From Leptogorgia sarmentosa (Eukaryota): a DNA stretch of 64,000 nt. The stretch spans positions 3,844,001 to 3,908,000 of the forward strand of contig OZ210884.1 in NCBI GenBank assembly GCA_964658305.1. The letters run 5' to 3'. Of the stretch, positions 3,933 to 57,080 are shown in pieces; position 1 is the stretch's first letter; every line of letters starts with the position of its first letter. The position numbers were made by a program, and so were the translations under genes. The notes beneath the pieces were generated by a model. It did no database searches. It was not told the DNA's origin and saw only the letters and a list, made by a program, of their open reading frames with translations.

Positions 3933-4145
3933 AAGGCCGGTTCACACTGTACAACTTTTGCTTACAACTGTCGCATGCAATGCGCTTACAACTGCAATTG
4001 TACAATGTAAATTAACCTTACAACTCGCTACGACTGTTCGATACAACACGAAAAAAGTTGTAGCCTTATGAAAGCATGTTTTAAAAGCTTGCGACAATTG
4101 CATGTGACAGTTGTAGGCAAAAGATGTACAATATAAACTGGCCTT
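3933..4145. mobile_element. Short MITE
   Basis: Imperfect TIRs AAGGCCGGTTCACACTGTACA / TGTACAATATAAACTGGCCTT. Confidence 0.55.
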
Positions 4146-4177
4146 CACAAGACAAGGGTAGTATATTTTCTAACTTT

Positions 4178-7100
4178 TCACACGACAACAGCAGTGTGCC
4201 AGTATCTTCTTTCAGACATTTCAGGAAGTTCTTGCCAAGTATAGCTTTCAAAGTTGAAAACTTCGACTGATTTGAGAGCTCGCCATCGCTCATCGTTTCC
4301 TCCAAGAACCACAATGTTGTTACCAAGCACAACTGCAGTACAATCCCGCCTCTTATATCTCATCGCTGGTAGGTCGTGGTATTTTCCTGTCCTGACATTG
4401 TAAATAAGAACTCTAGCCAATGTGTCGCGATGATTATCAGCGCCACCTATAAAAACGATGTTGTCTCCCCATTTCACCGTTGCCATCTTACTCACTTCAT
4501 ACGGCAGTGGTGCCAACTGTTTCCATTCATTCTTCTTTATGTCGTACAGCACGACACTGCTGAGGTTGTCTTGGTATCTGGCAGTTGGTCTGCCACCAAC
4601 GATTAACAAACTGTCGTCAAATCTTTCCATGGAGTGAAACTGTCTTGGTTCTGGCATTCTTGATAAGGTCTTCACCGTATATGGTGGCACAAGTTGGACT
4701 TCATGAAGACGATCAGATACTGCATTTCCATTATTACCACCAGAAACCATCAAGTGATCATTATACAGCACACTGCTGTGGTGTGACAATTTGATGGGAA
4801 GTTTAATACGACAGTCAATCCAGTGCGTTGAGAGATCAGGGTTTGGGTGGATATTCATTCTAATTATATCATCATAGACTATGTTAGCAGGACCGTAACC
4901 TCCGGCAATTGCCACGTGATTGTCGTGAACAAATGAAGTCGCTCCCCAACGCTTCTTTGGCATGGATTGTAATGGCGACCATGTCCTTTGGCGCCAGTTA
5001 AACATCTCTACAGAGTCAGTTCCACAACCACCAGCAACAATAATGTTCTCCCTGTCGCCACTTGGTGTATTTCTTACTTTTCTTGTGTTTTCTTCTATCT
5101 TGTCCTCCATCTTGATAAGAACATCCTTCATTTCATTAAAACCTATTAAAACCGGAAATTTATATAATGATCGCAAACAAATAGCTGAGCACTTAAATGA
5201 CTATTTTGTATTGGCCCAACACTTGCCGCTGAATCTATTTTCTATTTTCAAACAATTACTGAAACTAATATTCTAAAAAGTTTGCGTCGTTGAAGGTCAT
5301 AAATCTTTGCCTAGTAAGGAAATTGTATGTGGAGTTCCACAGGGATCTATCTTGGGGCCCCTCATGTTTTAATTATATATAAATGATTTGCCAGAATGTC
5401 TGAAAAACACAACTCCTGGCATGTATGCTGACGATACTCAAATATATGCATATTCCGCAAGTTTCTCCGATCTAGTAACAAAACTTAATCAGGATTTAGA
5501 AAATGTAGTCAAATGGCTCTCTCAAAATAAATTGCAACTTCACTCAGAAAAGACAAAAGCAATGTTGATAGGATCACCCTATAACTTAAAAAACAAAGTT
5601 GGCAAAGAACAAGTTATGATAAATGATACACCGGTTACTCGGTATTCCTCTTTTTCATGTTTGGGAGTAGAATTAGATGAAAGAATGAGCTGGGAAAACC
5701 ATATAGACACAATATGTAAGAAAGTTGCCTCCGGTATTGGAATCATCAAAAGAGTAAAACCGTTTGTACCATCCGAAACACGACACAATTTATATAATTC
5801 TCTCGTTCTCCCATATTTTGATTATTGTTCACCTTTATGGGATAATTGTGGAAGCATGCTCAAAGAGAAATTACAAAAACTACAAAATAGGGCGGCAAGA
5901 ATTATGACAGGTGCCAATTACGATGTCCGGTCAGCAGACTTGCTTCGTGGTATGTCATGGAAAAATCTGAACGACAGGCATAAAATGAATAAATCCGTCT
6001 TGATGTTTAAAATATTAAACAACCACTCGGCTCCGAACTTAAAGAATAAATTTATAGCAAGGGACACAAATCTTAGGAACTATAATCTCAGAAATGCTGA
6101 TGTAAATCTTTCAGTTCCAAAACCACGTACTGATTATTTAAAAAAGAGTCTTGGATATAGTGGGGCTGTGCTATGGAATAGTTTGCCAACGCACGCTAAG
6201 CGAACAGAGTCTTTAAATGTCTTCAAAAATTTGATAAAATAATGTTTGCAACAGAGTCAGACATCGATTAGTCTTGGTTTTTAAATTTTTTATTGCATGT
6301 ATCAGTATACAAATAATGAATGTTTATGAGTGCAATGGTAAGAATATTTTCATGAGGTGAAAGATGGAATGTTCTATTCAACGAGGCGAAGCCGAGTTGA
6401 ATGGAACATTCCATCTTTCACCGAATGAAAATATTCTTTCCATTGCACGAAATAAACATTCATTATTTGTTTTATATGACACTTTGTTAAATTTGGTATT
6501 TGAAATGCCCGCCATTTTGCTTCGTTAGTTTACTAAATAAAATTCCATCGCTCACATGGTCGCGCCACGTTAATGGTTCGCCATTAAATGCGTGCGATAA
6601 TAACATTTTGAGTGATTGAAAATAATTAAAACCACCGTGCAATGGAAAGAAATATTTGCACGGTTCCATTGCACGATCATGAAAATGGAATTTCTATTTT
6701 ATATCACGTGATCGTAAATAACCAATTAAATCGCGTTAATTTAACCAAGTGTTATATAATAACTCATATTTAATTTATGTAATTTATGTAATTATCCACG
6801 GGTGATGAGGGAAGCGTGGTTAAATAAAGTTTACTATACTATATTATATAACACTTGGTTAAATTAACGCGATTTAATTGGTTATTTACGATCACGTGAT
6901 ATAAAATAGAAATTCCATTTTCATGATCGTGCAATGGAACCGTGCAAATATTTCTTTCCATTGCACGGTGGTTTTAATTATTTTCAATCACTCAAAATGT
7001 TATTATCGGACGCATTTAATGGCGAATCCATGAACGTGGCGCGACCATGTGAGCGATGGAATTTTATTTAGTAAACTAACGAAGGAAAATGGCGGGCATT

Positions 7101-7993
7101 TCAAATACCAAATTTAACAAAGTGTCATATAAAACAAATAATGAATGTTTATTTCGTGCAATGGAAAGAATATTTTCATTCCGTGAAAGATGGAATGTTC
7201 CATTCAACTCGGCTTCGCCTCGTTGAATAGAACATTCCATCTTTCACCTCATGAAAATATTCTTACCATTGCACTCATAAACATTCATTATTTGTATACT
7301 ATACTATACTATACCTCTGATCAAAGCAGTTTGCAATCCTGTCACTTTATTGTTGACTGCTTCAACTTTTTCTTCAATATCTGCGGTGTTTCTCTCCGCT
7401 TTCGCAACATTTGTCGCCATACTCGTCTGTATATTCTTTACGTGAGTTCCCACAGTAGCTACATTTGCAACATTTGTCGCCATATTCTTCTCGACATTTG
7501 CGATTCTTTTCTCCATGTCCGTCAATGTTCTTGTCATTTCTCTACACGAGTGGCACTTTTGTTTTCGAAATTCGCAAACTTCGCTTTCATGGCGAACAAG
7601 ATCACGCTGGTTTAAAGTCGCACCACAGCCTTGGTTTCTACACACGGCGGGTGTAAATCCACAGGTATCTTCGTGTTTGTCCAAATGTTGTAGTTGTACG
7701 ATCTCTTGACAACCTCTGTCGACGTAAACGCAACGAATATTCAATTCATTCAACATCCGTTTTATCGTTCTTTGTGGTTCAGCCAAAGTCTCTACGGTCA
7801 GTTCGTCAGAACACGTAGGGCATCTTTGGGAATTCTCAAGGAATTTCGTAATACAACCACGACAAAAACAGTGGTGATTTGTGGGACACAGGACCGGGTC
7901 CCTCGGAACGTTAAAGCAGATTGAACAAATGAAATCTCGATCAATTGTGGACGCAAATCTATCCTCGTCGTAGCCTTGTATGGGAGACGCCAT
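4178..7993 (-). CDS. RING (C3HC4) + TRAF/SIAH-type zinc finger + coiled coil + Kelch repeat protein, putative E3 ligase; exons 7993-7315 and 5142-4178 (547 aa if spliced)
   Basis: ORF 7304-7993 has CSIC...C...H..C..C...CPTC and later Cys/His fingers. ORF 4178-5176 has ~6 Kelch repeats (GG...W, R..H). The halves join in frame across GT(7314)...AG(5143) as ...ALIRG-FNEMKD... Confidence 0.85.
5145..6842 (+). mobile_element. 5'-truncated, internally deleted non-LTR retrotransposon (CR1/L2-group RT C-terminus, 3' UTR, (TATAC)n tail continuing at 7296-7313)
   Basis: GVPQGSILGP followed by an in-frame stop, then YADDT, LGV.LD..MSW..HI and KLQNRAARI in ORF 5388-6242. AATAAA near 6823, then a TATAC microsatellite. 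Confidence 0.9.
6306..6760. mobile_element. Non-autonomous ~455-bp element, copy 1 (internal hairpin with GGCGAAGCC apex)
   Basis: Near-identical reverse complement at 6843-7298; internal palindrome ~6310-6470; sits at TA-rich sites in the LINE 3' UTR. Confidence 0.8.
6843..7298. mobile_element. Non-autonomous ~455-bp element, copy 2, inverted relative to copy 1
   Basis: Reverse complement of 6306-6760; interrupts the (TATAC)n LINE tail. Confidence 0.8.
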
Positions 7994-9089
7994 ATTTCAC
8001 GCTGTTCTAGTTCTTGTTTGGTAAAAACAAAACCAGCTTTGTGTTGATGTTGGTTGCTCTGTAGCGTAAACCTCGCTCTTATAGATTGAGTATTTGCCTT
8101 GATACAGAAACTGTTCGGTCTAAACTCTTTAAGTGATCTGTGTTTGTATTTGCTTTGGATTTTTATCAAAATTTCGTGTCAACAGCCAAATATCGCTTCC
8201 GCGTCTTTACCATGCAGACAGGAATTTGCTTGTATGAAATAGAATTTTTGATGTCTTGTGACTAAAGGTCATCACCTCATATTGATAATGGCCTACAATT
8301 GGTTACCGTGGATTCAAATAGAATATCTTTATAAAAAATGTAGAAACGAGTTCTAAGAAAATCGATAAGTCATAACCCACGATATAAAAAGATTGAGTAC
8401 ACATTATAGTATGATTGATGCAGATAAAGTCTGTACTAGAATTTTCACTCGCAAATGATTTCTTGCTAACAACAGACAATAGAAACGAATGCGCTTTCGT
8501 CAAAGTATTTCAAGCGAGTCTTTCCCAATCATAGACTGGCGTTTGTTTACCAAAGATCACAATGGGTGGTCATCGCCTTTTTTGTAACTAATCCCAAGCG
8601 GTCATTCCAACCTGTCATTCATTTGAACTTTGGCTGGTGTAGGTAACGACCTTGCAGGAAATTTCGAATCTTCTTGCATCGTTTCCGGTGGTTTTTCTTG
8701 GTAATGCGTCTTCCAGGAAAAAGGTAATATAATATTATACACCCTTCCTGAATGTAATAAGTCAGACAAATCGAAAGCGAAAATGAACGCTATTAATTTT
8801 GATATGGGCTTATTTATCTTTATTTTTGTAAAAATCTGAGCAAAGATGGAGGCCGGAAAAAGTCAAATTTTGTCATGTATTGTGTCATTGTTGACGGCAG
8901 CAATAGTGCAGTTTTTCCTGTAGCTACTAACAAGGCTTAGCCATTCAGCCTCGATTTCGAGTTCCGCCTTAACGCATGCTTGCGGAAGTCTGTATTTATT
9001 TTACTATACCAGCCTCTCATTCGGCCATCATTTGCCAGTACCATGATTATTTGCTGTTTGCACCGTGTTGCCCGAATCATGAAGTAAAA

Positions 9090-12000
9090 ATGCCACAGTT
9101 TTCTACATGTTGGCGTTGTGGCAAAACTTCGGCAAAAGTGGTTTGCCGATCATGTGAGGTCGCGAAATACTGCAGCAACGCGTGTAAGCAGAATGACGTC
9201 GCAAGGCATACTGACGCCGAATGTCGACCAGTATCTTTGATGAATACATGCTCATCGTGTCGTAAGGAAGGTCCATCGCTACGGAAGTGTACTGGCTGTT
9301 ACCGTGCCTTTTACTGTGACGCTACATGTCAAAAAAATCATCGACGTCAACACAAAGACGAGTGCAGACGTATCGAAGAAAAAATAAAATCACTGGCTAC
9401 GAATTTTGAATCCTCATTCAATCATAATGCTGCTCATGTTTGTCAGGCACATTATTACTGGGGTAATGTACCAGCGTTCGATTACCTGAACTTGTCAGAA
9501 AACGAAGGCCTCGATTATAATCCACCCGGTAGTGTGAATATCCTCGATCTTGGGGTTGGTGATATACGAAATATCGTGCTTACTTGCGCCTCATTGCCTG
9601 AGAAGTTTACCGGGAAGGTCAAGTTCACATTAAATGACACAGACAGATGTGTCCTGGCAAGACTGATTTTATTTCTTTATATGCTGCTCAAATGTAAGTT
9701 TTTGACTTATTTTGATATTAATGCAGGGTTTAAACCCAGCAATGGGGGGGGGGGGGGGGGGGGTGGAATTCATGCATGTATAATTTGTGATTCTTTTGTG
9801 TTAGGCGATTCAAACGCTAGTGTTTATGTTACTGAAATTTGGTACTCATCGTTACTAAGCAAGGAAACGTACTACTATCTGTGTGCTTCACTTGGAGAAC
9901 TTCTCCTGCTCAAAAGTGCCACAGACCTGACTTCTGCAACAAATGAGTTAATCCGTATGAATGGTGACCACTTTCAAGAGATTCACTACGTTTGGAGGCA
10001 GTGGCTCTACCTGGAGGTCGTTGGTACATCAAGTATTCGAGAACGACGACAGCAAGTGATTAAAGCCAATCCAGGTAGTTCTTTCGGATTAGAAAGTTTT
10101 TACAAGGCTATTCCAAAAGAGCACGTCCCTTCCGCCAGGAAGTATGTGGAGCATGGCGTCTTTCAATGCACGGAGGAGTGTTCATTCGCAGAGAATCCCA
10201 CACTGACAGGTCACCCCGTTTCATCCGACGATGATGGACCGTTTACATACTGTGTAGTAAGTGAAGGTATGCCATTTGCGGGTTGGGATTATATTAAAGT
10301 GAAGAAGTTCAAGTACAATGAGTCCCTTGTCTCTATGTATGCCAGCTACATCGGATCCAAATTAACTGCTTTCATGAAAAAATTGGCTTCCAGACAAGTC
10401 AGTTTTGACATTGTCCTTGGCGATTGCATGAAGATAGAAGAAGACCTAACCGAAGAAGAGAAATACGATAGAATTGTAACATCTAATCTCATGGACTACA
10501 TCCTTCTCCCAGAATTGTTAAGGTATGTAAAATCGCGATCGCATGGCCCTGGAAGCTGGAAGCTGGAGGCACTTTCTCATATCAGGCTCGCGCTTTGACA
10601 TACCTTATTCGTACTTAATTTCGCGCGTACTTAATTTCGCGATTTTGTCGAAGCCATATTTAGCGAGACTTTATTTTCGCGATTTTGATGACCGAAAATA
10701 GAAAAAGGGCATTAATTTTCGCGAAATACAGATTTTCAAAACCATCATTTATTGAATTTTAACTTTTAACAATGGAATTTTATTGAATTTTAACTTTTAT
10801 TGAAATTTATATATGTCGATGTCGGTAAAACAATATGCGTTCTGTACATGTTGTTGTTGATCATATATATTGGGAAATTAATGATTTAACAATTCTAATT
10901 TTTTTACTAATGTTTTAATTTCGCGTGGTTAAATTTCGCGAGGATTTTTATTCGCGCGACTTTAATTTCGCGATTTTTTTTCAATCGCGAAAATCGCGAA
11001 ATTAAAGTCACGCGAAATTAAGTACGAATAAGGTATGTTATAATTACGCTAGACGTATGTACCTGTTTCTAAAATAAGTCAAATCCAACTTTGACCTTAA
11101 GCTATCAAATGAATGGACTGAAAACTCACGCTAAAACTGCACAACATCCGTGATGCGCTTTATTTGGAACCCTCTAACTTCACATGAAATCCATTCCAGG
11201 ACTTCGTATTGGCATGGTTTAAACCAGAACAGAGATGAAGTTACAGGGTTCCAAAGTACAGCGTATCAGGCCATATCACCACAGATATCACGGATGTGGC
11301 GTCAGCAAAATTAGCGCTTTTGCTTGCGTTTCCAGTCCATTCCTTCCATTGTCTATATATTCTTTAACGTAGAAAATCGTAGTGTGAAAGTTTATTACTA
11401 TTATATAGAATAAATTTCAAACAAGATTTCAACGTCAGTTTCTTTATAGCTACACTCATTGTATTGGACTTCGATGACAGAGTCACCGAAGGTGCATGTT
11501 AGGGCACTAGCGCTTAGGTTAGGCCTCTAAAGCTTTGTCGATCAGTGCTATATATATAATTCGTCCAACTGGTCCATCCGTGAAGGACTATATAGATTGG
11601 TGAATAGGCAGAGAGGATTGCTAAATCTAAGGAAGTCTGAAATTAACTTTCAAATTCCGAGATCTAGAAGCTATTTTTTCAGTTAGAATTTCAGTTTCAC
11701 CTTGAGCCAGTGCACGCGCAATGTTGAGAGAGAGAAAGCCATTTCAAAGTATTTTTTCCATTTTAGAGCTTATTCTACCAAGCTTAATCGAAATAATCGC
11801 TTTGCAACACTGGTGACTGTTTGCCAAAATTGGGTACGTCATTGTCCAGATGCTGATGTGCAACTGCAACATGTACCGCAGATGGACTATCTTCGCGGAA
11901 TTGCGATGCTGGACACAAATAATCCAGTTCTTGCAACATATGGTATAAAAGCTCTCAGAGAGTACGCGGATAATTCTCATGAATTTAAAGATTATCTCCG

Positions 12001-20300: not shown

Positions 20301-23300
20301 CAATGTTCAGAATGCTAGCCCTAATAGACTGTTAGGGTTAGTGTTTACTATACTATTACTAATAGTATAGTAAACACTAGCTAACCCTAACAGTAAACCT
20401 TCACCCTAACTGGCGCGCTGTTGCTTTTTAAAGAACGGGACATAAACACAATATGCGCACTGAATCGCATTTTTAATTATTATGTTGAGCTTGCGATTAA
20501 AAAACGAGATATAAACGTGGTAAACTTAATCGGTAATAATTTTCACTTCGTACTATGATCGTATCACACTATCACGAAGGCTGTCAAACGCGTGCTTTCT
20601 GAATATTCGGGTATATCACATTTCACTTCGTGTAATCGTATTACGAAAAAATGTATCTTACCCAGGCTTCTTAAAAACTCGATTACATTACATTACGTGA
20701 TCATTTTGACTTCGTATCATCGTATCATGATAACAAGTCACTGTTTCAAAAGTGGACAGGTATTCTATAACCAAGCCGGGATTTTAAAGTTTGAGCGCAA
20801 CGGCAGCAATTTTCCTTGCGATAGTAACTCCTAGTATACAGGATTTCTGTATATTTTGTATCTGCAATTACATTTTTAGTATCACTACCACAAACTGCAC
20901 ATTTGACGAGTATTTCACCATGGTTATATATACAGGATTTCTGTTATTTGGTATCTGCAAGTACACTTTATAGTATCACTACCAATCTGCACATTTGACG
21001 AGTATTTCACCATGGTAATATATACAGGATTTCTGTATATTTTGTATCTGCAAATTATACACTTATAGTATCACTACCAAACTGCACATTTGACGAGTAT
21101 TTCACCATAGTTATATATACAGGATTTCTGTATATTTTGTATCTGCAATTATACACTTTAGTATCACTACCACACTGCACATTTGACGAGTATTTCAACA
21201 TGGTTATATATACAGGATTTCTGTATATTTTATATCGAGTGCAAGTACACTTTATAGTATCACTACCAAACTGCACATTTGACGAGTATTTCAACATGGT
21301 TATATGTACCGGTCTACAGGATTTCTGTATATTTTATATCTGCAAGTACACTTCAGTAGTATCACTACCAAAATGCACATTTGACGAGTATTTCACCATG
21401 GTTATTATATACAGGATTTCTGTATATTTTGTATCTGCATATTATACACTTTAGTATCACTACCAAACTGCACATTTGACGAGTATTTCAACATGGTTAT
21501 ATATACAGGATTTCTGTATATTTTGTATCTGCATATTATACACTTTAGTATCACTACCAAACTGCACATTTGACGAGTATTTCAACATGGTTATATATAC
21601 AGGATTTCTGCATATTATACACTTTAGTATCACTACCAAACTGCACATTTGACGAGTAGTTCACCATGGTTATATATACAGGATTTCTGTATATTTTGTA
21701 TCTGCAAATTATACACTTATAGTATCACTACCAAACTGCACATTTGACGAGTATTTCACCATAGTTAAATATACAGGATTTCTGTATATTTTATATCTGC
21801 AAGTACACTTTATAGTATCACTACCAAACTGCACATTTGACGAGTATTTCACCATGGTTATATATACAGGATTTCTGTATATTTTGTATCTGCATATTAT
21901 ACACTTTATTATCACTACCAAACTGCACATTTGACGAGTATTTCAACATGGTTATATGTACCGGTCTACAGGATTTCTGTATATTTTATATCTGCAAGCA
22001 CTTCAGTAGTATCACTACCAAAATGCACATTTGACGAGTATTTCACCATGGTTATTATATACAGGATTTCTGTATATTTTGTATCTGCATATTATACACT
22101 TTAGTATCACTACCAAACTGCACATTTGACGAGTATTTCAACATGGTTATATATACAGGATTTCTGTATATTTTGTAACTGCATATTATACACTTTAGTA
22201 TCACTACCAAACTGCACATTTGACGAGTATTTCAACATGGTTATATATACAGGATTTCTGTATATTTTGTATCTGCATATTATACACTTTAGTATCACTA
22301 CCAAACTGCACATTTGACGAGTATTTCAACATGGTTATATATACAGGATTTCTGTATATTTTGTATCTGCATATTATACACTTTAGTATCACTACCAAAC
22401 TGCACATTTGACGAGTATTTCAACATGGTTATATATACAGGATTTCTGTATATTTTGTATCTGCATATTATACACTTTAGTATCACTACGAAACTGCACA
22501 TTTGACGAGTATTTCAACATGGTTATATATACAGGATTTCTGTATATTTTGTATCTGCATATTATACACTTTAGTATCACTACCAAACTGCACATTTGAC
22601 GAGTATTTCAACATGGTTATATATACAGGATTTCTGTATATTTTGTATCTGCATATTATACACTTTAGTATCACTACCAAACTGCACATTTGACGAGTAT
22701 TTCACCATGGTTATTATATACAGGATTTCTGTATATTTTGTATCTGCATATTATACACTTTAGTATCACTACCAGACTGCACATTTGACGAGTATTTCAA
22801 CATGGTTATATATACAGGATTTCTGTATATTTTGTATCTGCATATTATACACTTTAGCATCACTACCAAACTACACATTTGACGAGTATTTCACCATGGT
22901 TATGTATACAGGATTTCTGTATATTTTGTATCTGCAAGTACACTTTAGTATCACTACCAAACTGCACATTTGACGAGTATTTGAACATGGTTATATATAC
23001 AGGATTTCTGTATATTTTGTATCTGCATATTATACACTTTAGTATCACTACCAAACTGCACATTTGACGAGTATTTCACCATGGTTATATATACAGGATT
23101 TCTGTATATTTTGTATCTGCAATTATACACTTTAGTTAGTATCACTACCAAACTGCACATTTGACGAGTATTTCACCATGGTTATATATACAGGATTTCT
23201 GTATATTTTGTATCTGCATATTATACACCTTAGTATCACTACCAAACTGCACATTTGACGAGTATTTCAACATGGTTATATACTGATACAGGATTTCTGT

Positions 23301-26300
23301 ATACTTTGTATCGGCAAGTACACTTCAGTAGTATCACTACCAAAATGCACATTTGACGAGTATTTCACCATGGTTATATATACAGGATTTCTGTATATTT
23401 TGTATCTGCATATTATACACTTTAGTATCACTACCAAACTACACATTTGACGAGTATTTCACCATGGTTATATATACAGGATTTCTGTATATTTTGTATC
23501 TGCAATTATACACTTTAGTTAGTATCACTACCAAAATGCACATTTGACGAGTATTTCAACATGGTTATATGTACAGGTCTACAGGATTTCTGTCATTCAG
23601 GAGTATAACTACCAAAATGCACATTTGACGAGTATTTCACCATGGTTATATATACAGGATTTCGGAATATTTTATATCTGCATATTATACACTTTAGTAT
23701 CACTACCAAACTACACATTTGACGAGTATTTCACCATGGTTATATATACAGGATTTCTGTATATTTTGTATCTGCAAGTACACTTTAGTATCACTACCAA
23801 ACTGCACATTTGACGAGTATTTCACCATGGTTATATATACAGGATTTCTGTATATTTTGTATCTGCATATTATACACCTTAGTATCACTACCAAACTGTA
23901 CATTTGATGAGTATTTCACCATGGTTATATATACAGGATTTCGGAATATTTTGTATCTGCATATTATACACTTTAGTATCACTACCAAACTACACATTTG
24001 ACGAGTATTTCACCATGGTTATATATACAGGATTTCTGTATATTTTGTATCTGCAAGTACACTTTAGTATCACTACCAAACTGCACATTTGACGAGTATT
24101 TCACCATGGTTATATATACAGGATTTCTGTATATTTTGTATCTGCATATTATACACCTTAGTATCACTACCAAACTGTACATTTGACGAGTATTTCACCA
24201 TGGTTATATATACAGGATTTCGGAATATTTTGTATCTGCATATTATACACTTTAGTATCACTACCAAACTACACATTTGACGAGTATTTCACCATGGTTA
24301 TATATACAGGATTTCTGTATATTTTGTATCTGCAAGTACACTTTAGTATCACTACCAAACTGCACATTTGACGAGTATTTCACCATGGTTATATATACAG
24401 GATTTCTGTATATTTTGTATCTGCAATTATACACTTTAGTATCACTACCAAAATGCACTGTTGACGAGTATTTCATCATGGTTATTATATAATTGGATTT
24501 CCGATGTTTTGTATCTGCTAGCGCAGTTTAGATATCGCTTTGGGGTGGTGATATCTAAACTGTACTTGCAGATACAAAGTATACAGAAATCCTGTATATA
24601 TATAAAACCATGATGAAATATTCGTCACATTATTTACTATACGATCTGTACCATATATATGTCTTGGGGTAGTGATATCTAAACTGTACTTGCAGATACA
24701 AAGTATACAGAAATCCTGTATATATAACCATGATGAAATACTCGTCACATTTAAAATTTAATATACTACCTACCATAGGTTTTGGGGTGGTGATATCTAA
24801 ACTGTACTTGCAGATACAAAGTATACAGAAATCCTGTATATATAACCATGATGAAATACTCGTCACATTTAAAATTTAATGTCCGACCTATACCATAGGT
24901 TTTGGGGTGGTGATATCTAAACTGTACTTGCAGATACAAAGTATACAGAAATCCTGTATATATAACCATGATGAAATACTCTTCACATTTAAAATTTAAT
25001 TATATACGATCTATACTATATGTCTTGGGGTGGGGGGGGGGGGGGGGTGATATCTAAACTGTACTTGCAGATACAAAGTATACAGAAATCCTGTATATAT
25101 AAACATGATGAAATACTCGTCACATTTAAAATTTAATATCCGACCTATACCATAGGTTTTGGGGAGGTGATATCTAAACTGTACTTGCAGATACAAAGTA
25201 TACAGAAATCCTGTATATATAACCATGATGAAATACTCGTCACATTTAAAATTTAATATACGACCTATACCATAGGTTTTGGGGTGGTGATATCTAAACT
25301 GTACTTGCAGATACAAAGTATACAGAAATCCTGTATATATAACCATGATGAAATACTCGTCACATTATTTACTATACGATCTGTACTATATATAGGTCTT
25401 GGGGTAGTGATATCTAAACTGTACTTGCAGATACAAAGTATACAGAAATCCTGTATATATAACCATGATGAAATATTCGTCACATTATTTACTATACGAT
25501 CTGTACTATATGTCTTGGGGTAGTGATATCTAAACTGTACTTGCAGATACAAAGTATACAGAAATCCTGTATATATAACCATGATGAAATACTCGTCACA
25601 TTTAAAATTTAATATACTACCTACCATAGGTTTTGGGGTGGTGATATCTAAACTGTACTTGCAGATACAAAGTATACAGAAATCCTGTATATATAACCAT
25701 GATGAAATACTCGTCACATTTAAAATTTAATATCCGACCTATACCATAGGTTTTGGGGTGGTGATATCTAAACTGTACTTGCAGATACAAAGTATACAGA
25801 AATCCTGTATATATAACCATGATGAAATACTCGTCACATTTAAAATTTAATATACGATCTATACTATATGTCTTGGGGTAGTGATATCTAAACTGTACTT
25901 GCAGATACAAAGTATACAGAAATCCTGTATATATAACCATGATGAAATACTCGTCACATTTAAAATTTAATATACGATCTATACTATATGTCTTGGGGTA
26001 GTGATATCTAAACTGTACTTGCAGATACAAAGTATACAGAAATCCTGTATATATATAACGATGATGAAATACTCGTCACATTTAAAATTTAATATACGAT
26101 CTATACTATATGTCTTGGGGTAGTGATATCTAAACTGTACTTGCAGATACAAAGTATACAGAAATCCTGTATATATAACCATGATGAAATACTCGTCACA
26201 TTTAAAATTTAATATACGATCTATACTATATGTCTTGGGGTAGTGATATCTAAACTGTACTTGCAGATACAAAGTATACAGAAATCCTGTATATATATAA

Positions 26301-29300
26301 CGATGATGAAATACTCGTCACATTTAAAATTTAATATACGATCTATACTATATGTCCACCCGTTGAACAAAGACCTCAACGGGTAGTACCCGATATTTCT
26401 CAATTGAGAACATGGGTAATGCCCACGCTGGATTATCGTCTAAGTAGCCTGGCCTGGTAAATTATGAACAGTGATTGCCCGGGTCTATAATCATATGCAT
26501 TTAGCCAGGCCAGAGTGGTGAGCAGCGAGCTCGATGTAGCTCAAGTGGTAAGGCACGCGGTGCGTGCGTTACAGTTCTATAGTTCAAGCCCCGGTTCGAC
26601 ACATTTTTTCAGCGTTAGTGATTAAACATTTTTTTCCTCAATATTTTTTCAACCACAATGGTCAGGGTTAGGATTCTAGGGTTTGGGTTGGGATTAAGGA
26701 AATTCTTAGTATATAGAAAAATGGTTTATATCTAACACTAATATAACTATATCAAGAGTAATACTGAAACGCCGACCAGCAAGCTTAGACGATAGTCCAG
26801 CGTGGGCATTACCCGTGTTCTCAATTGAGAAATATTGGGTACTACCCGTTGAGGTCTTTGTTCAACGGCTGATATGTCTTGGGGTAGTGATATCTAAACT
26901 GTACTTGCAGATACAAAGTATACAGAAATCCTGTATATATAACCATGATGAAATACTCGTCACATTTAAAATTTAATATACGACCTATACCATAGGTTTT
27001 GGGGGGTGATATCTAAACTGTACTTGCAGATACAAAGTATATACAGAAATCCTGTATATATAACCATGATGAAATACTCGTCACATTTAAAATTTAATAT
27101 ACGATCTATACTATATGTCTTGGGGTAGTGATATCTAAACTGTACTTGCAGATACAAAGTATACAGAAATCCTGTATATATAACCATGATGAAATACTCG
27201 TCACATTTAAAATTTAATATACGATCTATACTATATGTCTTGGGGTAGTGATATCTAAACTGTACTTGCAGATACAAAGTATACAGAAATCCTGTATATA
27301 TAACCATGATGAAATACTCGTCACATTTAAAATTTAATATACGATCTATACCATAGGTTTTGGGGGGTGATATCTAAACTGTACTTGCAGATACAAAGTA
27401 TACAGAAATCCTGTATATATAACCATGATGAAATACTCGTCACATTTAAAATTTAATATACGACCTATACCATAGGTTTTGGGGGGTGATATCTAAACTG
27501 TACTTGCAGATACAAAGTATACAGAAATCCTGTATATATAACCATGATGAAATAATCGTCACATTTAAAATTTAATATACGACCTATACCATAGGTTTTG
27601 GGGGGTGATATCTAAACTGTACTTGCAGATACAAAGTATACAGAAATCCTGTATATATAACCATGATGAAATACTCGTCACATTTAAAATTTAATATACG
27701 ACCTATACCATAGGTTTTGGGGGGTGATATCTAAACTGTACTTGCAGATACAAAGTATACAGAAATCCTGTATATATAACCATGATGAAATACTCGTCAC
27801 ATTTAAAATTTAATATACGATCTATACTATATGTCTTGGGGTAGTGATATCTAAACTGTACTTGCAGATACAAAGTATACAGAAATCCTGTATATATAAC
27901 CATGATGAAGTACTCGTCAAATATAAAATTTAATATACGAGTCTACTAGCTAGGTCTTGGGGGTAGTGATACCTATATACTGTAGTTGCAGATCAGCAGA
28001 TACAAAGTATACAGTAATCCTGTATATATAACCATGGTGAAACTGAAATAACCACTCCTTTTTAAGCGAATATTGTAGGTCACAGATGGCGTGGATTCGT
28101 AGTGAATCCTACTATATTTTCGGGAAATGAAAAGCCGATACACCGATTTTTGGTATCATAACCATTGTACGATCAGTTTTTGTCAAGCTGTTTAACAACG
28201 TTTATTCTTTGAAATCTCGAGTTTGTTGGTTGTAGCGCTAATCTAATAACTGCACACAATGTTGTTAACGTAATTGTAATATTTAGAATATCTACGTGCT
28301 TTATCGTCATTTTCTAACCCTATTTTGTGTGATTTTTGCCCAGATGATGGTCAGCATTTTCTATCAATTCAGTTATTTTTATAGATCAACGAGTAAATTT
28401 TTACATTTGGTCAGCGGAAATACCCACAAATTGCGTGGTTGCATCTGTGGTTATGTATACTGAAAAATGGATATGATACATATATCCAGATTTTCTTCGC
28501 TGAATGAAAGTGAACTCTCTTTTAAATGTATAATAAAACAATTATTGGATTCGGCTTTCGCATGATATCAAGAATTATTCAGACCTCGGTCAATGTTATC
28601 CGCCTCAGCTTCGCTTCGGCAGATAACATTGACCTCGGTCTGAATAATTCTTGATAATTATCATTCTCCGCCTCATCCAATAATTGTTTATTAAAGTAAT
28701 GAAAACCAAATATGTTACTGTTTTAACTTTTGTATCTTCCCGACATGATCAGTGAGGGCCTTCACATCATACGTTAATTAAAAACGTTTCTGGGTTCAAT
28801 ATAGACTAGCTTTCCTCGCTTTCAACGGTATTATTAATAATGTTCAACTCAAACACCGATACTTTTTTAAGACACTCGGTGGTCTAACTTTTCGTCTACG
28901 TAGAATAGGGTTGAATATATTCGACGTAGTCTTTCTTCCTTCATTTAAGGTCTAGCTCAGGGAAGGGAAGAAATGACAATTGTATTGTTTAGTCATATTT
29001 ACAACAAATGCAAAGTCTAAAATGATTCAATTTAGATCCAAACACGCACACCTAAATTATTGTTTAGAACCGCCCTTTGACGAGGAGTGTCTATATAATC
29101 ATAGTACGGACATTTGTGGCAGAAATTCTCAATGTAAGTATTGATACTGCTTGGGGTTCCAGACGCAAATGTAACCCTGGTTATTCAGGAGTGGTTTGTA
29201 CTGGTAAGGCTTGTTCTCTTATTATGTACGCGCCAATCATCTACCTTTTCCTGGTATATTCAATTAACATGTTCTTTATATTATAACCTATGCAAAATTA

Positions 29301-32300
29301 CATTACATCAGCACTACCAACGTTAACGCAGATTGATAGCTAATATCATTGCATTTCAGTCTGGTTCTCTTAATATATATGTATGTTTTGGAGAACATTA
29401 TAATCAAGGTGCATGTTCCAAGATTATATCATCGTTCTCCATAAGAATAGATTTTGTGAGTATAGTGAAATTAAAATTATTATAAAGTCTGTTACATGTA
29501 TTCTTAGATGAAGCCCGTAGCAGAGGGGGGGGGGGGGGTGCCCCACCCACTCGGAAATAAAATTGAAATTGTGCCCCCCTATTCCACAATCTTTTTGCCA
29601 TTTAAAAATTAGACAGCGAGGCTGTCTTGTCCATGAAAGAATAGTAATCGAAGGCGTAGCCTAATTATTTTGGTGTAGTAGCCACAAACACTATCACTGT
29701 GATAGTCAGTGTGACGTTTGAATATCTGAATATTAACAGAAATATAAATACATTTATATGCAGCTTTTGCTTTTTTGGTTTTAGTTAAGCCCACTTATGA
29801 CAGTAACGCCGACGAACTTGGTATGATAATACTTTGATAACACTGTAATATACCCTTTATTTTCATTTTGAAATTTTAATGTGTGTGAAACATGACATAC
29901 GACAAAGACCGTGGATCACTAACTAAACTAGCTGCGAGTTCAAAAGTTCAAAAGCGTACCAAATCTTTTTAAATTTTTTTTCTGCAGCGCCCCCCCCAGA
30001 AAAAAAGAGCCATGATCAATGTTCTTCGACTAACAACTGCCATTCCAATGCTGATTGCATCAACACTTATGGGTTTAACGTGTGCACTTGTCGCACTGGA
30101 TACAAAGGAAATGGAATTCTTTGCACTGGTAAACAAACCCCATTTATTAATAAAACCTGCCTTAAAAAGACAATTCAGAGTTGTTTTTTTAAATAAATGA
30201 GTGATAACCTAAAATATTGTTTTTTAAAGCTCTGCCAAATATTTTCAGATATCGATGAATGTTCTTTTTCTCGTGACAAAAACTGTCACAAAAATGCCAT
30301 TTGCAGCAATACTGATGGATCTTTCTTGTGCACCTGTGGCACTGGATTCACTGGAAATGGAATTCTTTGCACTGGTAAACAAACCCATTTACTAATAAAA
30401 CCTCTCTTAAAATAAAGACAATTCAGAGTTTTTATGAAATAAATGAGTGATTAAACCTAAAATATATATTTTTTAAATTTTTGTCAAATATTTTCAGATA
30501 TCGATGAATGTTCTTTTTCTCATGACAACTGTCACGAAAATGCCATTTGCAGCAATACTGATGGATCTTTCTTGTGCACTTGTGACACTGGCTATACAGG
30601 AAATGGAATTCGTTGCAGAGGTAGAGTCAAACTAATTTGGTTACATTAAAAATTTCCAAAAATCCTTTTCTATAATTAAGAGCGAAGATTCTGAAAAGAG
30701 GTAGTAATAATCTAAATGTCTATACGTGGAAGTTTTGAAAACGAAGGAAATGCTTCGAATGAATTAAGCTATCCATAAATGGTAAATAAATGTATAATTG
30801 TTGTATCCGTTTAGATATAGATGAATGTTCTCTTTCTCTTGACAACTGTCACGACAACGCCATTTGCAGTAATACTGATGGATCTTTCGCTTGCACTTGT
30901 GACACTGGATACACTGGAAATGGAATTCTTTGCACTGGTAATTACTAAACAAACCCATTTACCAATAAAACCTTCCCTTAAAAATAAAAATAATTCAGAG
31001 TTTTTATGATTATGAAATAAATTTGTTACAACCAAAAATATTTTTTTCGTGAAAGTTTTGTCAAATATTTTCAGATATCGATGAATGTTCTTTTTCTCGT
31101 GACAACTGTCACGAAAATGCCATTTGCAGCAATACTGATGGATCTTTCTTGTGCACTTGTGGCATTGGATACACTGGAAATGGAATTCTTTGCACTGGTA
31201 AACAAACCCATTTATTAATAAGACCTTCCTATAAAAAAAAATAATTCAGAGTTTTTATGAAATAAAAGAGTGATAACCTAAAAAATTGTTGCGAAAGTTT
31301 TGTCAAATATTTCAGATATCGATGAATGTTCTTTTTCTCGTGACAACTGTCACGAAAATGCCATTTGCAGCAATACTGATGGATCTTTCTTGTGCACTTG
31401 TGACACTGGCTATACAGGAAATGGAATTCGTTGCGGAGGTAGAGTTAAGCTAATTTGGTTACTTTAAAAATTTCCAAAAATCCTTTTCTATAATTAAGAG
31501 CGAAGATTCTGAAAAGAGGTAGTAATAACCTAAATGTCTACGTGGAAGTTTTCAAAACGAAGGAAAAGCTTCGAATGAATTAAGCTATCCATAAATGGCA
31601 AGTAGATGTATAATTGTTGTATCCGTTTAGATATAGATGAATGTTCTCTTTCTCTTGACAATTGTCACGACAACGCCATTTGCAGCAATACTGATGGATC
31701 TTTCGCTTGCACTTGTGACACTGGATACACTGGAAATGGAATTCTTTGCGGTGGTAATTACTAAACAAACCCATTTATTAATAAAACCTGCCTTAAAAAT
31801 AAAGATAATTCAGAGTTTTTATGATTTATGAAATAAATTGAGTTACAACCTATAATACAATATTTTTTTCGCGAAAGTTTTTTCAAATATTTTCAGATAT
31901 CCATGAATGTTCTTTTTCTCTTGACAACTGTCACGAAAATGCCATTTGCAGCAATACTGATGGATCTTTCTTGTGCACTTGTGGCATTGGATACACTGGA
32001 AATGGAATTCTTTGCACTGGTAAACAAACCCATTTACTAATAAAACCTGCATTAAAAATAAAGACAATTAGAGTTTTTATGAAATAAATTAGTTACAACC
32101 TAAAATATTTTTCTTGAAAGTTTTGTCAAATATTTTCAGATATCGATGAATGTTCTTTTTCTCGTGACAACTGTCACGAAAATGCCATTTGCAGCAATAC
32201 TGATGGATCTTTCTTGTGCACTTGTGACACTGGCTACACAGGAAATGGAATTCGTTGCAGAGGTAGAGTTAAACTAATTTGGTTACTTTAAAAATTTCCA

Positions 32301-35300
32301 AGAATCCTTTTCTATAATTAAGAGCGAAGATTCTGAAATGAGGTAGTAATAACCTAAATGTCTCCGTGGAAGTTTTGAAAACGAAAGAAATACTTCGAGT
32401 GAATTATGCTATCCATAAATGGCAAGTAGATGTATAATTGTTGTATCCGTTTAGATATAGATGAATGTTCTCTTTCTCTTGACAATTGTCACGACAACGC
32501 CATATGCAGCAATACTGGTGGATCTTTCGCTTGCACTTGTGACACTGGATACACTGGAAATGGAATTCTTTGCATTGGTAATTACTAAAGAAACCCATTT
32601 TCCAATAAAACCTGCCTTAGGAATAAAGATAGTTCAGAGTTTTTATGATTATGAAATAAATGAGTTACAACCTAAAATATTGTTTTCGTGAAAGTTTTGT
32701 CAAATATTTTCAGATATCGATGAATGTTCTTTTTCTCATCTCAACTGTCACGAAAATGCCATTTGCAGCAATACTGAAGGATCTTTCTTGTGCACTTGTG
32801 ACATTGGATACACCGGAAATGGAATTCGTTGCAGAGGTAGAGTCAAACTAATTTGGTTACATTAAAAATTTCCAAAAATCCTTTTCTATAATTAAGAGCG
32901 AAGATTCTGAAAAGAGGTAGTAATAATCTAAATGTCTATACGTGGAAGTTTTGAAAACGAAGGAAATGCTTCGAATGAATTAAGCTATCCATAAATGGTA
33001 AATAAATGTATAATTGTTGTATCCGTTTAGATATAGATGAATGTTCTCTTTCTCTTGACAACTGTCACGACAACGCCATTTGCAGTAATACTGATGGATC
33101 TTTCGCTTGCACTTGTGACACTGGATACACTGGAAATGGAATTCTTTGCACTGGTAATTACAAAAACAAACCCATTTACCAATAAAACCTTCCCTTAAAA
33201 ATAAAAATAATTCAGAGTTTTTATGATTATGAAATAAATTTGTTACAACCAAAAATATTTTTTTCGTGAAAGTTTTGTCAAATATTTTCAGATATCGATG
33301 AATGTTCTTTTTCTCGTGACAACTGTCACGAAAATGCCATTTGCAGCAATACTGATGGATCTTTCTTGTGCACTTGTGGCATTGGATACACTGGAAATGG
33401 AATTCTTTGCACTGGTAAACAAACCCATTTATTAATAAGACCTTCCTATAAAAAAAATAATTCAGAGTTTTTATGAAATAAAAGAGTGATAACCTAAAAA
33501 ATTGTTGCGAAAGTTTTGTCAAATATTTCAGATATCGATGAATGTTCTTTTTCTCGTGACAACTGTCACGAAAATGCCATTTGCAGCAATACTGATGGAT
33601 CTTTCTTGTGCACTTGTGACACTGGCTATACAGGAAATGGAATTCGTTGCGGAGGTAGAGTTAAGCTAATTTGGTTACTTTAAAAATTTCCAAAAATCCT
33701 TTTCTATAATTAAGAGCGAAGATTCTGAAAAGAGGTAGTAATAACCTAAATGTCTACGTGGAAGTTTTCAAAACGAAGGAAAAGCTTCGAATGAATTAAG
33801 CTATCCATAAATGGCAAGTAGATGTATAATTGTTGTATCCGTTTAGATATAGATGAATGTTCTCTTTCTCTTGACAATTGTCACGACAACGCCATTTGCA
33901 GCAATACTGATGGATCTTTCGCTTGCACTTGTGACACTGGATACACTGGAAATGGAATTCTTTGCGGTGGTAATTACTAAACAAACCCATTTATTAATAA
34001 AACCTGCCTTAAAAATAAAGATAATTCAGAGTTTTTATGATTTATGAAATAAATTGAGTTACAACCTATAATACAATATTTTTTTCGCGAAAGTTTTTTC
34101 AAATATTTTCAGATATCCATGAATGTTCTTTTTCTCTTGACAACTGTCACGAAAATGCCATTTGCAGCAATACTGATGGATCTTTCTTGTGCACTTGTGG
34201 CATTGGATACACTGGAAATGGAATTCTTTGCACTGGTAAACAAACCCATTTACTAATAAAACCTGCATTAAAAATAAAGACAATTAGAGTTTTTATGAAA
34301 TAAATTAGTTACAACCTAAAATATTTTTCTTGAAAGTTTTGTCAAATATTTTCAGATATCGATGAATGTTCTTTTTCTCGTGACAACTGTCACGAAAATG
34401 CCATTTGCAGCAATACTGATGGATCTTTCTTGTGCACTTGTGACACTGGCTACACAGGAAATGGAATTCGTTGCAGAGGTAGAGTTAAACTAATTTGGTT
34501 ACTTTAAAAATTTCCAAGAATCCTTTTCTATAATTAAGAGCGAAGATTCTGAAATGAGGTAGTAATAACCTAAATGTCTCCGTGGAAGTTTTGAAAACGA
34601 AAGAAATACTTCGAGTGAATTATGCTATCCATAAATGGCAAGTAGATGTATAATTGTTGTATCCGTTTAGATATAGATGAATGTTCTCTTTCTCTTGACA
34701 ATTGTCACGACAACGCCATATGCAGCAATACTGGTGGATCTTTCGCTTGCACTTGTGACACTGGATACACTGGAAATGGAATTCTTTGCATTGGTAATTA
34801 CTAAAGAAACCCATTTTCCAATAAAACCTGCCTTAGGAATAAAGATAGTTCAGAGTTTTTATGATTATGAAATAAATGAGTTACAACCTAAAATATTGTT
34901 TTCGTGAAAGTTTTGTCAAATATTTTCAGATATCGATGAATGTTCTTTTTCTCATCTCAACTGTCACGAAAATGCCATTTGCAGCAATACTGAAGGATCT
35001 TTCTTGTGCACTTGTGACATTGGATACACCGGAAATGGAATTCGTTGCAGAGGTAGAGTCAAACTAATTTGGTTACATTAAAAATTTCCAAAAATCCTTT
35101 TCTATAATTAAGAGCGAAGATTCTGAAAAGAGGTAGTAATAATCTAAATGTCTATACGTGGAAGTTTTGAAAACGAAGGAAATGCTTCGAATGAATTAAG
35201 CTATCCATAAATGGTAAATAAATGTATAATTGTTGTATCCGTTTAGATATAGATGAATGTTCTCTTTCTCTTGACAACTGTCACGACAACGCCATTTGCA

Positions 35301-38300
35301 GTAATACTGATGGATCTTTCGCTTGCACTTGTGACACTGGATACACTGGAAATGGAATTCTTTGCACTGGTAATTACAAAAACAAACCCATTTACCAATA
35401 AAACCTTCCCTTAAAAATAAAAATAATTCAGAGTTTTTATGATTATGAAATAAATTTGTTACAACCAAAAATATTTTTTTCGTGAAAGTTTTGTCAAATA
35501 TTTTCAGATATCGATGAATGTTCTTTTTCTCGTGACAACTGTCACGAAAATGCCATTTGCAGCAATACTGATGGATCTTTCTTGTGCACTTGTGGCATTG
35601 GATACACTGGAAATGGAATTCTTTGCACTGGTAAACAAACCCATTTATTAATAAGACCTTCCTATAAAAAAAATAATTCAGAGTTTTTATGAAATAAAAG
35701 AGTGATAACCTAAAAAATTGTTGCGAAAGTTTTGTCAAATATTTCAGATATCGATGAATGTTCTTTTTCTCGTGACAACTGTCACGAAAATGCCATTTGC
35801 AGCAATACTGATGGATCTTTCTTGTGCACTTGTGACACTGGCTATACAGGAAATGGAATTCGTTGCGGAGGTAGAGTTAAGCTAATTTGGTTACTTTAAA
35901 AATTTCCAAAAATCCTTTTCTATAATTAAGAGCGAAGATTCTGAAAAGAGGTAGTAATAACCTAAATGTCTACGTGGAAGTTTTCAAAACGAAGGAAAAG
36001 CTTCGAATGAATTAAGCTATCCATAAATGGCAAGTAGATGTATAATTGTTGTATCCGTTTAGATATAGATGAATGTTCTCTTTCTCTTGACAATTGTCAC
36101 GACAACGCCATTTGCAGCAATACTGATGGATCTTTCGCTTGCACTTGTGACACTGGATACACTGGAAATGGAATTCTTTGCGGTGGTAATTACTAAACAA
36201 ACCCATTTATTAATAAAACCTGCCTTAAAAATAAAGATAATTCAGAGTTTTTATGATTTATGAAATAAATTGAGTTACAACCTATAATACAATATTTTTT
36301 TCGCGAAAGTTTTTTCAAATATTTTCAGATATCCATGAATGTTCTTTTTCTCTTGACAACTGTCACGAAAATGCCATTTGCAGCAATACTGATGGATCTT
36401 TCTTGTGCACTTGTGGCATTGGATACACTGGAAATGGAATTCTTTGCACTGGTAAACAAACCCATTTACTAATAAAACCTGCATTAAAAATAAAGACAAT
36501 TAGAGTTTTTATGAAATAAATTAGTTACAACCTAAAATATTTTTCTTGAAAGTTTTGTCAAATATTTTCAGATATCGATGAATGTTCTTTTTCTCGTGAC
36601 AACTGTCACGAAAATGCCATTTGCAGCAATACTGATGGATCTTTCTTGTGCACTTGTGACACTGGCTACACAGGAAATGGAATTCGTTGCAGAGGTAGAG
36701 TTAAACTAATTTGGTTACTTTAAAAATTTCCAAGAATCCTTTTCTATAATTAAGAGCGAAGATTCTGAAATGAGGTAGTAATAACCTAAATGTCTCCGTG
36801 GAAGTTTTGAAAACGAAAGAAATACTTCGAGTGAATTATGCTATCCATAAATGGCAAGTAGATGTATAATTGTTGTATCCGTTTAGATATAGATGAATGT
36901 TCTCTTTCTCTTGACAATTGTCACGACAACGCCATATGCAGCAATACTGGTGGATCTTTCGCTTGCACTTGTGACACTGGATACACTGGAAATGGAATTC
37001 TTTGCATTGGTAATTACTAAAGAAACCCATTTTCCAATAAAACCTGCCTTAGGAATAAAGATAGTTCAGAGTTTTTATGATTATGAAATAAATGAGTTAC
37101 AACCTAAAATATTGTTTTCGTGAAAGTTTTGTCAAATATTTTCAGATATCGATGAATGTTCTTTTTCTCATCTCAACTGTCACGAAAATGCCATTTGCAG
37201 CAATACTGAAGGATCTTTCTTGTGCACTTGTGACATTGGATACACCGGAAATGGAATTCTTTGCACTGGTAAACAAACCCATTTATTAATAAAACCTGCC
37301 TTAAAAATAAAGACAATTCAGAGTTTTTATGAAATAAATGAGAGATAATCTAAATTATTTTTTTCCGGTGCGTAACTCCCCGTCCATAACCTAAATAGAG
37401 CTTTCTGATTGGTTGCCGAGCGGTCCGTATCCTACGGTACGGACTGCACGCATTCTCGTAGATACAAACATAGTCAATGTTTTTGTTTTTTAAAATTGAA
37501 TAACCGCTTTTTAAAACATTCAAAACGAATTTAGGAGATAAAGAACACATGAAAGTTCATTTTATCATGCTAAGGGATATTTTAGGGGGTATTTACAGCG
37601 ACAAAAACGCATAAGTATCAAAAAGTCTCATCAGTATGAACAAAACAAGACATTCTCGGCGAAATATTTCGGTGCCTAAAGCGTATTTTCACCATGTTTG
37701 TATCGTGAAACAAACGGGAACATAAATCATCTTAATACGTTTACCCTTTTCGTAGTAATGTTGAGTGGAAAAGCGTCAATATTGAGGCAAATGCGTCAAT
37801 ATTGAAGGGTTTTTTCTCACTTCGTCTTGGCTGTTTAGCAGCCATACTTGCGATAGAGTAGCAAAGTAAACAAACACAACTGATCTCAAAAACTAGTTCG
37901 CAACGCTGGAATTTTTGACGAATTTTATCATAAAATAGAGGAGAAAAAAAAAAGAAAGTTATTTACCATTTAGGTCGGTCCGTACTGGAAAATATTTTGT
38001 CTCGGTCTCAAAAACGTCCCTCAGCCTTCGGCCTCGGGCCGTTTTCGAGACCCTGACAAAATATTTTCCAGTACAGGTCCGGACCTCCCAGCTGGTAAAT
38101 AACATATGTATATATTTTTTTTTGAAAGTTTTTTAAAATATTTTCAGATATCGATGAATGTTCTTTTTCTCATCTCAACTGCCACGAAAAGGCCATTTGC
38201 AGCAATACTGCTGGATCTTTCTTGTGCACCTGTGACACTGGATTCACTGGAAATGGAATTCTTTGCACTGGTAAACAAACCCATTTACTAATAAAACCTC

Positions 38301-56716: not shown

Positions 56717-57080
56717 ACATTCATCGGTGTTCCCTTTGTCAATCTGGTTGGTGTTCTTCCATTTTTGGTGGTCAGTATTGGTATAGATGATGTGTTTATT
56801 ATTCTACACGAGCTGAATGATATGGTCCGACAAAATATCCCAGCAATGTATATGCTCAGTGGTACAATGGCAAGAAGTGGTCCAACAATAACCATGACGA
56901 CTCTCACTGACCTCGCAGCATTTGCCGTTAGCTGTCGTTCCATCTTTCCAGCAATTCGCTTCTTCTGCACGTACGCTGCAGTAACAATTTGTTCTGCTTT
57001 CTTTATGCTGGTGACATTTTTTGTTGGTTGCATGTGGTTCGATATCAAACGAGTAAATGCTCAACGCAGAGATTTTCTAA
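56717..57080 (+). pseudogene. Patched-domain (PTCHD3/NPC1-like) sterol-sensing domain fragment
   Basis: PFLVVSIGIDDVFII...GPTITMTTLTD.AAFAV...FPAIRFFC.YAA...D.KR; in-frame stop just upstream (56705), homology lost after ~57080, no neighbouring exons seen. Confidence 0.8.

Follow-up and report, generated by a model that had tools for sequence, protein, structure and literature searches.

A LINE-derived, frame-exact potential intron in a RING-TRAF-Kelch gene of the octocoral Leptogorgia sarmentosa

A potential intron in a RING-TRAF-Kelch gene

A 64,000-nucleotide stretch of the genome of the octocoral Leptogorgia sarmentosa (GenBank assembly GCA_964658305.1, contig OZ210884.1, forward-strand positions 3,844,001 to 3,908,000; called the window here, with positions counted from its first letter) contains a RING-TRAF-Kelch gene on the minus strand that is interrupted at 5143-7314 by 2,172 bp that, on the gene strand, open with GT and close with AG. 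The observations support this insert as a potential intron that is derived from a long interspersed nuclear element (LINE), exact in frame and not ancestral to the gene. We give a probability of about 0.5 that at least some transcripts have it spliced out. The fuller proposal, that it is a segregating, functional octocoral intron made in one step by L2/CR1-type integration, with the target duplication giving GT and AG, a copy of the flank giving the pyrimidine tract and a later pair of elements resembling miniature inverted-repeat transposable elements (MITEs) masking cryptic sites, is tentative and on the doubtful side.

A Pfam search with both exon pieces recognised RING, TRAF/Sina zinc fingers and Kelch repeats, and the product also has a coiled coil. 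The coding part of exon 1 (7315-7993, minus strand) begins with the ATG and carries the RING, the TRAF/Sina zinc fingers and the coiled coil in 226 codons plus one base; contigs identical to it occur in runs X6 and X8, two of the sequencing runs described below. Upstream of it, 7994-8209 (minus strand) is likely a 5′ untranslated region (UTR) or upstream part, for which a 279-bp contig identical to the window is found in the same two RNA-like runs. The coding part of exon 2 (4178-5142, minus strand) covers the end of the coiled coil and the Kelch propeller through the stop codon. The two parts (679 + 965 nt) join into 547 codons and one stop.

The first-pass annotation of this DNA had reported an insert of this length beginning GTATAG, with AGGT at both junctions, whose exact removal restores the frame, and all of this was borne out. 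On the plus strand ACCT lies at 7313-7316 and 5141-5144, and the duplication extends on neither side. On the gene strand the insert starts GTATAGTATAG and ends GGTTTTAATAG; the AG/GT at 7313-7316 (minus strand) forms the predicted donor GAG/GTATAG, its plus-strand AC doubling as the end of the LINE tail, and the second copy of the 4-bp duplication, at 5141-5144 (minus strand), forms the predicted acceptor TTTTAATAG/G. Removal leaves 547 codons free of stops, reading ...TALIRG/FNEMKD across the join. The GT...AG ends thus restore the frame, as in U2 spliceosomal introns. Only one of the 105 GT sites keeps the frame as a donor with the true acceptor (7314), and only two of the 82 AG sites do so as acceptors, 5143 and 5185. 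The latter (minus strand) is an upstream AG within the LINE; its use would lengthen the product by 14 in-frame residues and might give a second splice form.

Composition of the insert and origin of its junctions

On the plus strand, antisense to the gene, 5157-6305 is a 5′-truncated CR1/L2-type remnant of the LINE second open reading frame with the start of its 3′ UTR, comprising a piece from before the reverse transcriptase (RT), a large deletion and the C-terminal half of the RT. The remnant gave an RVT_1 match in Pfam (E 1.4e-6, just under the cut-off), is 85% and 78% identical to the RT proteins P0121 and P0122, and aligns to residues 408-471 and 652-966 of the latter, an endonuclease-RT protein. 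The APE-type endonuclease (PF03372, PF14529) of the full-length relative P0122 is gone from the truncated window copy. A short tandem-repeat 3′ tail, 5′ truncation, a short duplication and extra 5′ nucleotides are all present, as in the CR1 group. The element is therefore likely a CR1-group (CR1/L2-type) retrotransposon without long terminal repeats (non-LTR), the clade label resting on tail type and junction form. The end of the 3′ UTR, with AATAAA at 6823-6828 and the inner tail (CTATA)2, lies at 6762-6843 (plus strand), and the outer tail (CTATA)3 C at 7299-7314 (plus strand); before a second MITE-like copy split it, the tail was (CTATA)5 C.

The LINE had been noted to carry a stop and a deletion. 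It does, and its damage exceeds that description: besides the stop at 5370-5372 and a 4-bp deletion at 5208 there are a 3-bp insertion at 5312 and larger deletions of ~54 bp at 5237/5240 and ~550 bp at 5279/5280, the size of the last being estimated from P0122. A sister LINE contig of run X5 matches the window from 5157 and continues for 301 letters unlike it. Contigs of this run end exactly at 5279, 5278 and 6307, and not at 5157; the window region upstream is barely covered, at 96% likeness. These breakpoints suggest a deleted sister copy elsewhere, so that the large deletion may predate the insertion and probably came with the source element. Sister LINE copies are few, with LINE-to-gene depth ratios of 0.8 and 2.3.

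The insert had also been described as wholly transposon DNA, and this did not hold. Between the LINE and the junction, 5145-5156 (plus strand) consists of extra nucleotides, namely a 9-bp host copy and three unassigned bases (5154-5156), which on the gene strand make the T-rich tract before the AG; the X5 sister contig matches only from 5157. Positions 5145-5153 are an exact copy of host positions 5135-5143 (chance ~4e-4 within 20 offsets either way), so that GGTTTTAAT of the acceptor exactly copies the adjoining exon. With the duplicated host bases 5143-5144 added, the would-be intron ends, on the gene strand, in 11 host-derived bases, and this is the chief correction to the first-pass annotation.

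In the L2-clade elements ZfL2-1 and ZfL2-2, duplications of ~5 bp, 5′ truncation and extra 5′ nucleotides drawn from the flank have been described (PMC4245944). The window insert resembles them in all three features, which are known there from fish elements and cultured cells, with no link to intron formation drawn in the portion of that paper used here. Ordinary LINE priming and 5′ end-joining of this kind would yield both the 4-bp duplication and the 9-bp flank copy, and a single ordinary integration would therefore account for both junctions. It is quite improbable that a 10-bp tandem duplication of AGGTTTTAAT came first and broke the frame, with the LINE landing later between the copies (a Rogers-type event with transposon filler). 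The acceptor side is indeed an exact host copy, as that order of events would predict, yet two independent hits within 10 bp would be required, whereas the flank-derived 5′ nucleotides reported for L2-clade inserts let one event suffice.

Two inverted copies of one ~452-bp element lie within the LINE, one in its 3′ UTR (6308-6759, plus strand, 452 bp, with TA at 6306-6307 and 6760-6761) and one within the (CTATA)n tail (6844-7296, minus strand, with TA at 6842-6843 and 7297-7298). Where the first-pass annotation had seen two nested MITEs, two insertions with TA flanks are indeed present; they are not two elements, but inverted copies of one, and terminal inverted repeats are lacking. The element has the TA duplication on both sides of both copies and the high copy number of a MITE (depth ~970-1,440 times that of the unique part of the gene); its two ends differ, and its inverted repeats are internal. 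It works like a MITE (compared here with the TA-target, Tc1/mariner-like type). Sister LINEs lack the first copy, with a joint from 6305 to 6760. The two copies differ by four substitutions and a 1-bp indel over 454 bp and share two variants that are absent from ~99% of the family depth; one was likely made from the other on the spot, ~0.55% ago per copy, and would have hopped locally into the tail afterwards. Three of the four substitutions are C/G transversions, and the element also has internal hairpins.

Age of the insertion and its absence from relatives

The LINE differs from the X5 sister contig at six of ~910 bases and from an X3 contig at 10 of 1,028 (~0.6-1%). Five of the six differences from X5 alter the protein, and at each of these the sister has the residue of P0121, the closest relative. 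The LINE and MITE clocks both point to about 0.6%.

The gene belongs to a large family. The exon 2 query matched 1,385 relatives at E <= 1e-30 with a top identity of 80%; the species-named ones among the matches listed were two, both from Paramuricea clavata. These records (P0069, P0090) belong to an octocoral 'RING finger 151-like / NRDP1' RING-TRAF-Kelch expansion whose domains and length match the window gene. The window copy differs in being interrupted and in having R, a residue found there in 0 of 119 homologues, just before the junction instead of the usual E. Summed depth over the exon 2 parts shared by the family reaches, as a rough figure from the DNA-like run X3, ~100 times that of the unique part of the gene, and close paralogs therefore number roughly on the order of 100.

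An alignment took in 119 of the 120 homologues listed, all 119 at least 330 aa long, as proteins, in which exon structure is unseen. A junction-spanning block is shared by 118 of the 119, mostly as ALIE-GF or ALIE-AF, with Gly at the split codon in 76; the E-G and K-G pairs suggest, with the codons unseen, that many family members probably had an AG/GT site here by the time the LINE inserted. A contig of X3 joins 5141 to 7322 via eight paralog letters at a depth of 2,984, and loose ends matching the continuous paralog site occur in X2, X5, X6 and X7 (X2, from another organism with a share of 0.05, holds only divergent family and element pieces). Since paralogs are continuous in a DNA-like run, the intron is not ancestral and the gene was formerly intronless here; an ancestral intron in the paralogs, which the first-pass annotation had proposed checking for, is thereby excluded. 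It is accordingly highly unlikely that an ancestral intron was filled by transposons, or that the insert is an assembly artefact. The window's own junctions are absent among the contigs listed, and an inverted repeat of 1 kb is hard to assemble, which would fit such an account. Against it, the paralogs are gapless in the DNA-like runs, the parts of the insert are all assigned with no old intron left, and the TA duplications at both MITE-like copies together with their private differences are not expected from mis-assembly.

Other DNA for comparison was sparse. A metagenome scan with 47 candidate stretches gave family-member DNA at two loci, a 55% identical one and a 131-bp fragment, too distant for a ratio of nonsynonymous to synonymous change; GTDB gave family members in 0 of 29, viral contigs gave LINE matches in 0 of 5, and further paralog or LINE copies were not found within the window. 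The 55% identical member (L001:389-1837) has two matched blocks ~490 bp apart in the coiled-coil region, by repeat expansion or insertion.

Splicing or disruption

A truncated CR1/L2-type LINE would, in the proposal favoured here, have inserted backwards at an AG/GT of a RING-TRAF-Kelch gene that until then had no intron. Host bases duplicated at the ends of the insert would likely act as splice sites, GAG/GTATAG ... TTTTAATAG/G, the insert would likely be removed from part of the transcripts with the original protein restored, and ~100 paralogs would buffer the loss, so that a leaky new intron could persist almost neutrally. The competing account, to which we give only slightly less weight, is a recently disrupted allele or young pseudogene that acquired intron-like ends by luck at one of the four AGGT sites in the 1,641 coding bases. 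It would be rarely spliced, its transcripts would stop at codon 230 (unspliced translation halts after 229 residues) or at an internal poly(A) site, paralogs would cover for it, and expression in other samples would come from empty alleles or a near-identical duplicate.

Splice signals were scored at nine positions against a generic donor consensus. The donor matches five of the nine. The acceptor has 9 of 13 pyrimidines, ranking joint third by pyrimidine count among 69 YAG sites, and a 40-nt AG-free zone; a pyrimidine tract with such a zone is also a mark of U2 spliceosomal introns. A control from the same genome is given by 37 EGF exons at 30251-42528, all of the form AG/.../GT, 10 of which have GAG/GTAGAG. 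Fourteen of these 37 donors score 5 or less (13 equal to the window donor and one below it), and +5G is present in just one. The window donor is one base from the 10 predicted native EGF donors, and one EGF acceptor ends TTTTAATAG. The signals thus resemble predicted native ones, which speaks against simple disruption. The MITE pair may contribute as well: a predicted stem of ~470 bp (-800 kcal/mol, computed without shuffled controls at that length) starts ~16 nt past the donor, with 6762-6843 as its loop, and covers the stronger donors 7266 and 6555, the top acceptor 7076 and two AATAAA signals. If formed, this stem would hide several stronger cryptic sites.

Transcript evidence came from eight listed runs, six of them (X2, X3 and X5-X8) compared as contigs; five of these six have no library record. 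The MITE-to-gene depth ratio is 973 in X3 and 1,438 in X5, and 23 in X6 and 12 in X8; given the low ratios, X6-X8 are likely RNA. Contigs of X6 show zero difference to the window at 7315-7397, 7368-7560, 7531-7623, 7931-8209 and 4385-4519, and two differences at 4075-4383. These pieces have depths of 8-14, with 34 for a shared piece. In sum X6 has 2 differences in ~1,030 bases, with zero cover over the LINE body, a count resting on the pieces listed, beside which 2,277 more exist. It also has the derived K450 of the window, a position at which X3 and X5 carry R. If X6 carried an empty allele without recombination, such closeness would have a probability between 0.05 (6.2 differences expected) and 0.003 (9.9 expected), the expectations being estimates. 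On both sides of the insert, X6 thus resembles the window haplotype more closely than a non-recombining empty allele should. At least one sample appears to transcribe both exons with no LINE sequence, and its genotype may be that of an empty allele. Short LINE pieces in X7 and X8 (depth 3-4) are unplaceable. Two further signs were considered and rejected: an X6 contig starting exactly at 7315 is read as a variant at 7314, as a branch between spliced and unspliced forms would start at 7313, and the gap in LINE cover in X6 is a hole in the contigs, not proof of splicing.

The exons themselves carry no stop or frameshift in 1,641 bases, where 0.43 stops would be expected at 0.6%, or 1.2-2.8 disabling changes with frameshifts included. 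The chance of exons this clean in a dead gene is 0.65, 0.29 or 0.06, depending on the indels counted, and recombination with empty alleles would raise the chance of finding none; at such an age, clean exons give weak support to function. The contrast drawn initially between clean exons and a broken LINE is therefore correct in both its facts and weak as evidence, because the insert is only ~0.6% old, its largest deletion probably came from the source element and exchange with empty alleles may occur. An excess of deviations from conserved columns (25 of 336, top among 77 proteins, the next most isolated having 22) was rejected as a sign of decay: such excess grows with how far a protein stands from its nearest relative, and almost all of the deviations recur in close alleles.

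Several observations weigh against splicing or in favour of a disrupted allele. At the donor, +4A, +5G and +6T are missing, and higher scores (6 or 7) are reached by 22 other GT sites in 4178-7993; the EGF donors, themselves predicted from sequence, are duplicates of one another with 12 distinct 9-mers. The branch-point motif is loose in animals. With the motif YTNAY, no usable branch point was found in the last 80 nt, matches occurring only within the last seven bases. On the gene strand, eight AATAAA/ATTAAA signals fall within the insert; the predicted stem leaves an AATAAA at 6294 uncovered, as it does cryptic LINE sites. A random duplication of 4-10 bp contains AGGT at 0.2-1.7% of places, 4 of the 105 GT sites are preceded by AG, and any one insertion would have a 0.2-4% chance of forming a precise junction; such a junction is uncommon, yet not so rare as to lie beyond luck in a large scan. 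No joint from 5142 to 7315 occurs among the joints listed (15 of 21) in any of the four runs covering the whole locus, where the weakest listed joint has a depth of ~115 against ~10 in X6, so that a faint one could escape. An X6 piece at 7776-7859 (depth 3.5, 3 of 84 differences) was left out as a likely paralog, and its inclusion weakens the haplotype argument. X8 matches exon 1 exactly and differs at 5 of 209 exon 2 bases; this mixed match shows that the flanks of the gene recombine or convert, which undercuts haplotype arguments. The window allele has E479G, Q480K and R450K, at columns in which the family residue is retained by most homologues and by some other alleles. There is probably also an insertion-free form, to judge from X3, whose gene is ~99% identical (0-2 differences per piece) and whose 2,020-bp LINE contig passes through the deletion and MITE sites of the window, contigs being apt to drop variants.

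Other features of the window

Head to head with the RING-Kelch gene, 8973-10598 (plus strand) holds an unbroken frame of 541 aa with a MYND finger and DUF4470. Satellite arrays of 94-bp and 120-bp units, which share sequence in opposite orientation, occupy 20835-28042. The EGF exons used as the control belong to an EGF-calcium-binding repeat gene (30251-42528, plus strand) with 37 near-identical phase-1 exons, of which the search pattern may miss a few more; it has expanded by tandem duplication of exon-plus-intron units, with periods of 246 bp and ~2.2 kb. A single block at 54053-54772 (minus strand) resembles the second nucleotide-binding region of the ABCC4 transporter, and two of its best matches are from Dendronephthya (54%). 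Further ABCC4 exons were not found in the window (tblastn with four full-length relatives), and no introns were mapped in the block. An exon with a sterol-sensing/Patched domain lies at 56708-57196 (plus strand).

Relation to known systems and implications

The first-pass annotation had linked intron gain by AG/GT duplication mainly to DNA transposons. Non-LTR elements make up 5% of the confidently classified introners in the consulted portion of Gozashti et al. (2025, PMC12130899), so the mechanism is less new than implied. Supplement files 7 and 8 of that study hold 14 non-LTR rows, none cnidarian, and list 0 introner families for Dendronephthya, Paramuricea and Xenia. One row, Strongylocentrotus purpuratus fam1 (LINE/I-Jockey, four copies, 'co-opt both'), is likewise a LINE-derived insert of a marine animal that takes donor and acceptor alike from duplicated host bases. 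The window insert differs in being a single copy of CR1/L2 type, in that its splicing is predicted, and in an acceptor tract that is a copy of flanking DNA. Like introners, it stems from a transposon and is missing from homologous genes, and it works like one; introner membership also takes several intron-forming copies.

In the Rogers-model case of ATP2A1, re-enacted in human cells, splicing at the duplicated AGGT ran at 6-16% (Hellsten et al. 2011, PMC3265369, in the portion consulted). There, too, the duplicated AG/GT gives donor and acceptor, the peptide is unchanged and the acceptor context copies the exon, whereas in the window the spacer is a retrotransposon rather than duplicated exon and only 4 + 9 host bases were copied. 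Co-option of both sites has been described, together with efficient splicing of the observed introners and their bias to lowly expressed genes (PMC9860276, in part), and single retrotransposon-derived introns are reported from many eukaryotes (PMC11282704, in part). A cnidarian LINE-derived intron or a study of this gene family did not appear among the top-ranked literature, a coverage that leaves out most subscription journals.

Animals offer few recent, one-off intron gains whose origin can still be read, and introner surveys need several similar copies and would miss a case such as this one. If the insert is unspliced, it would simply have knocked out one member of a redundant family, and it would caution that chance alone yields exact AGGT junctions in ~1 insertion per 100. 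If it is spliced, the presence of empty and filled alleles in one species would allow splicing efficiency, fitness cost and later tuning of a newborn intron to be measured directly, and a known LINE junction signature would be linked to acceptor formation. Should the fuller proposal be true, LINE integration of this kind would be a general route to introns, caught here with both allele types side by side.

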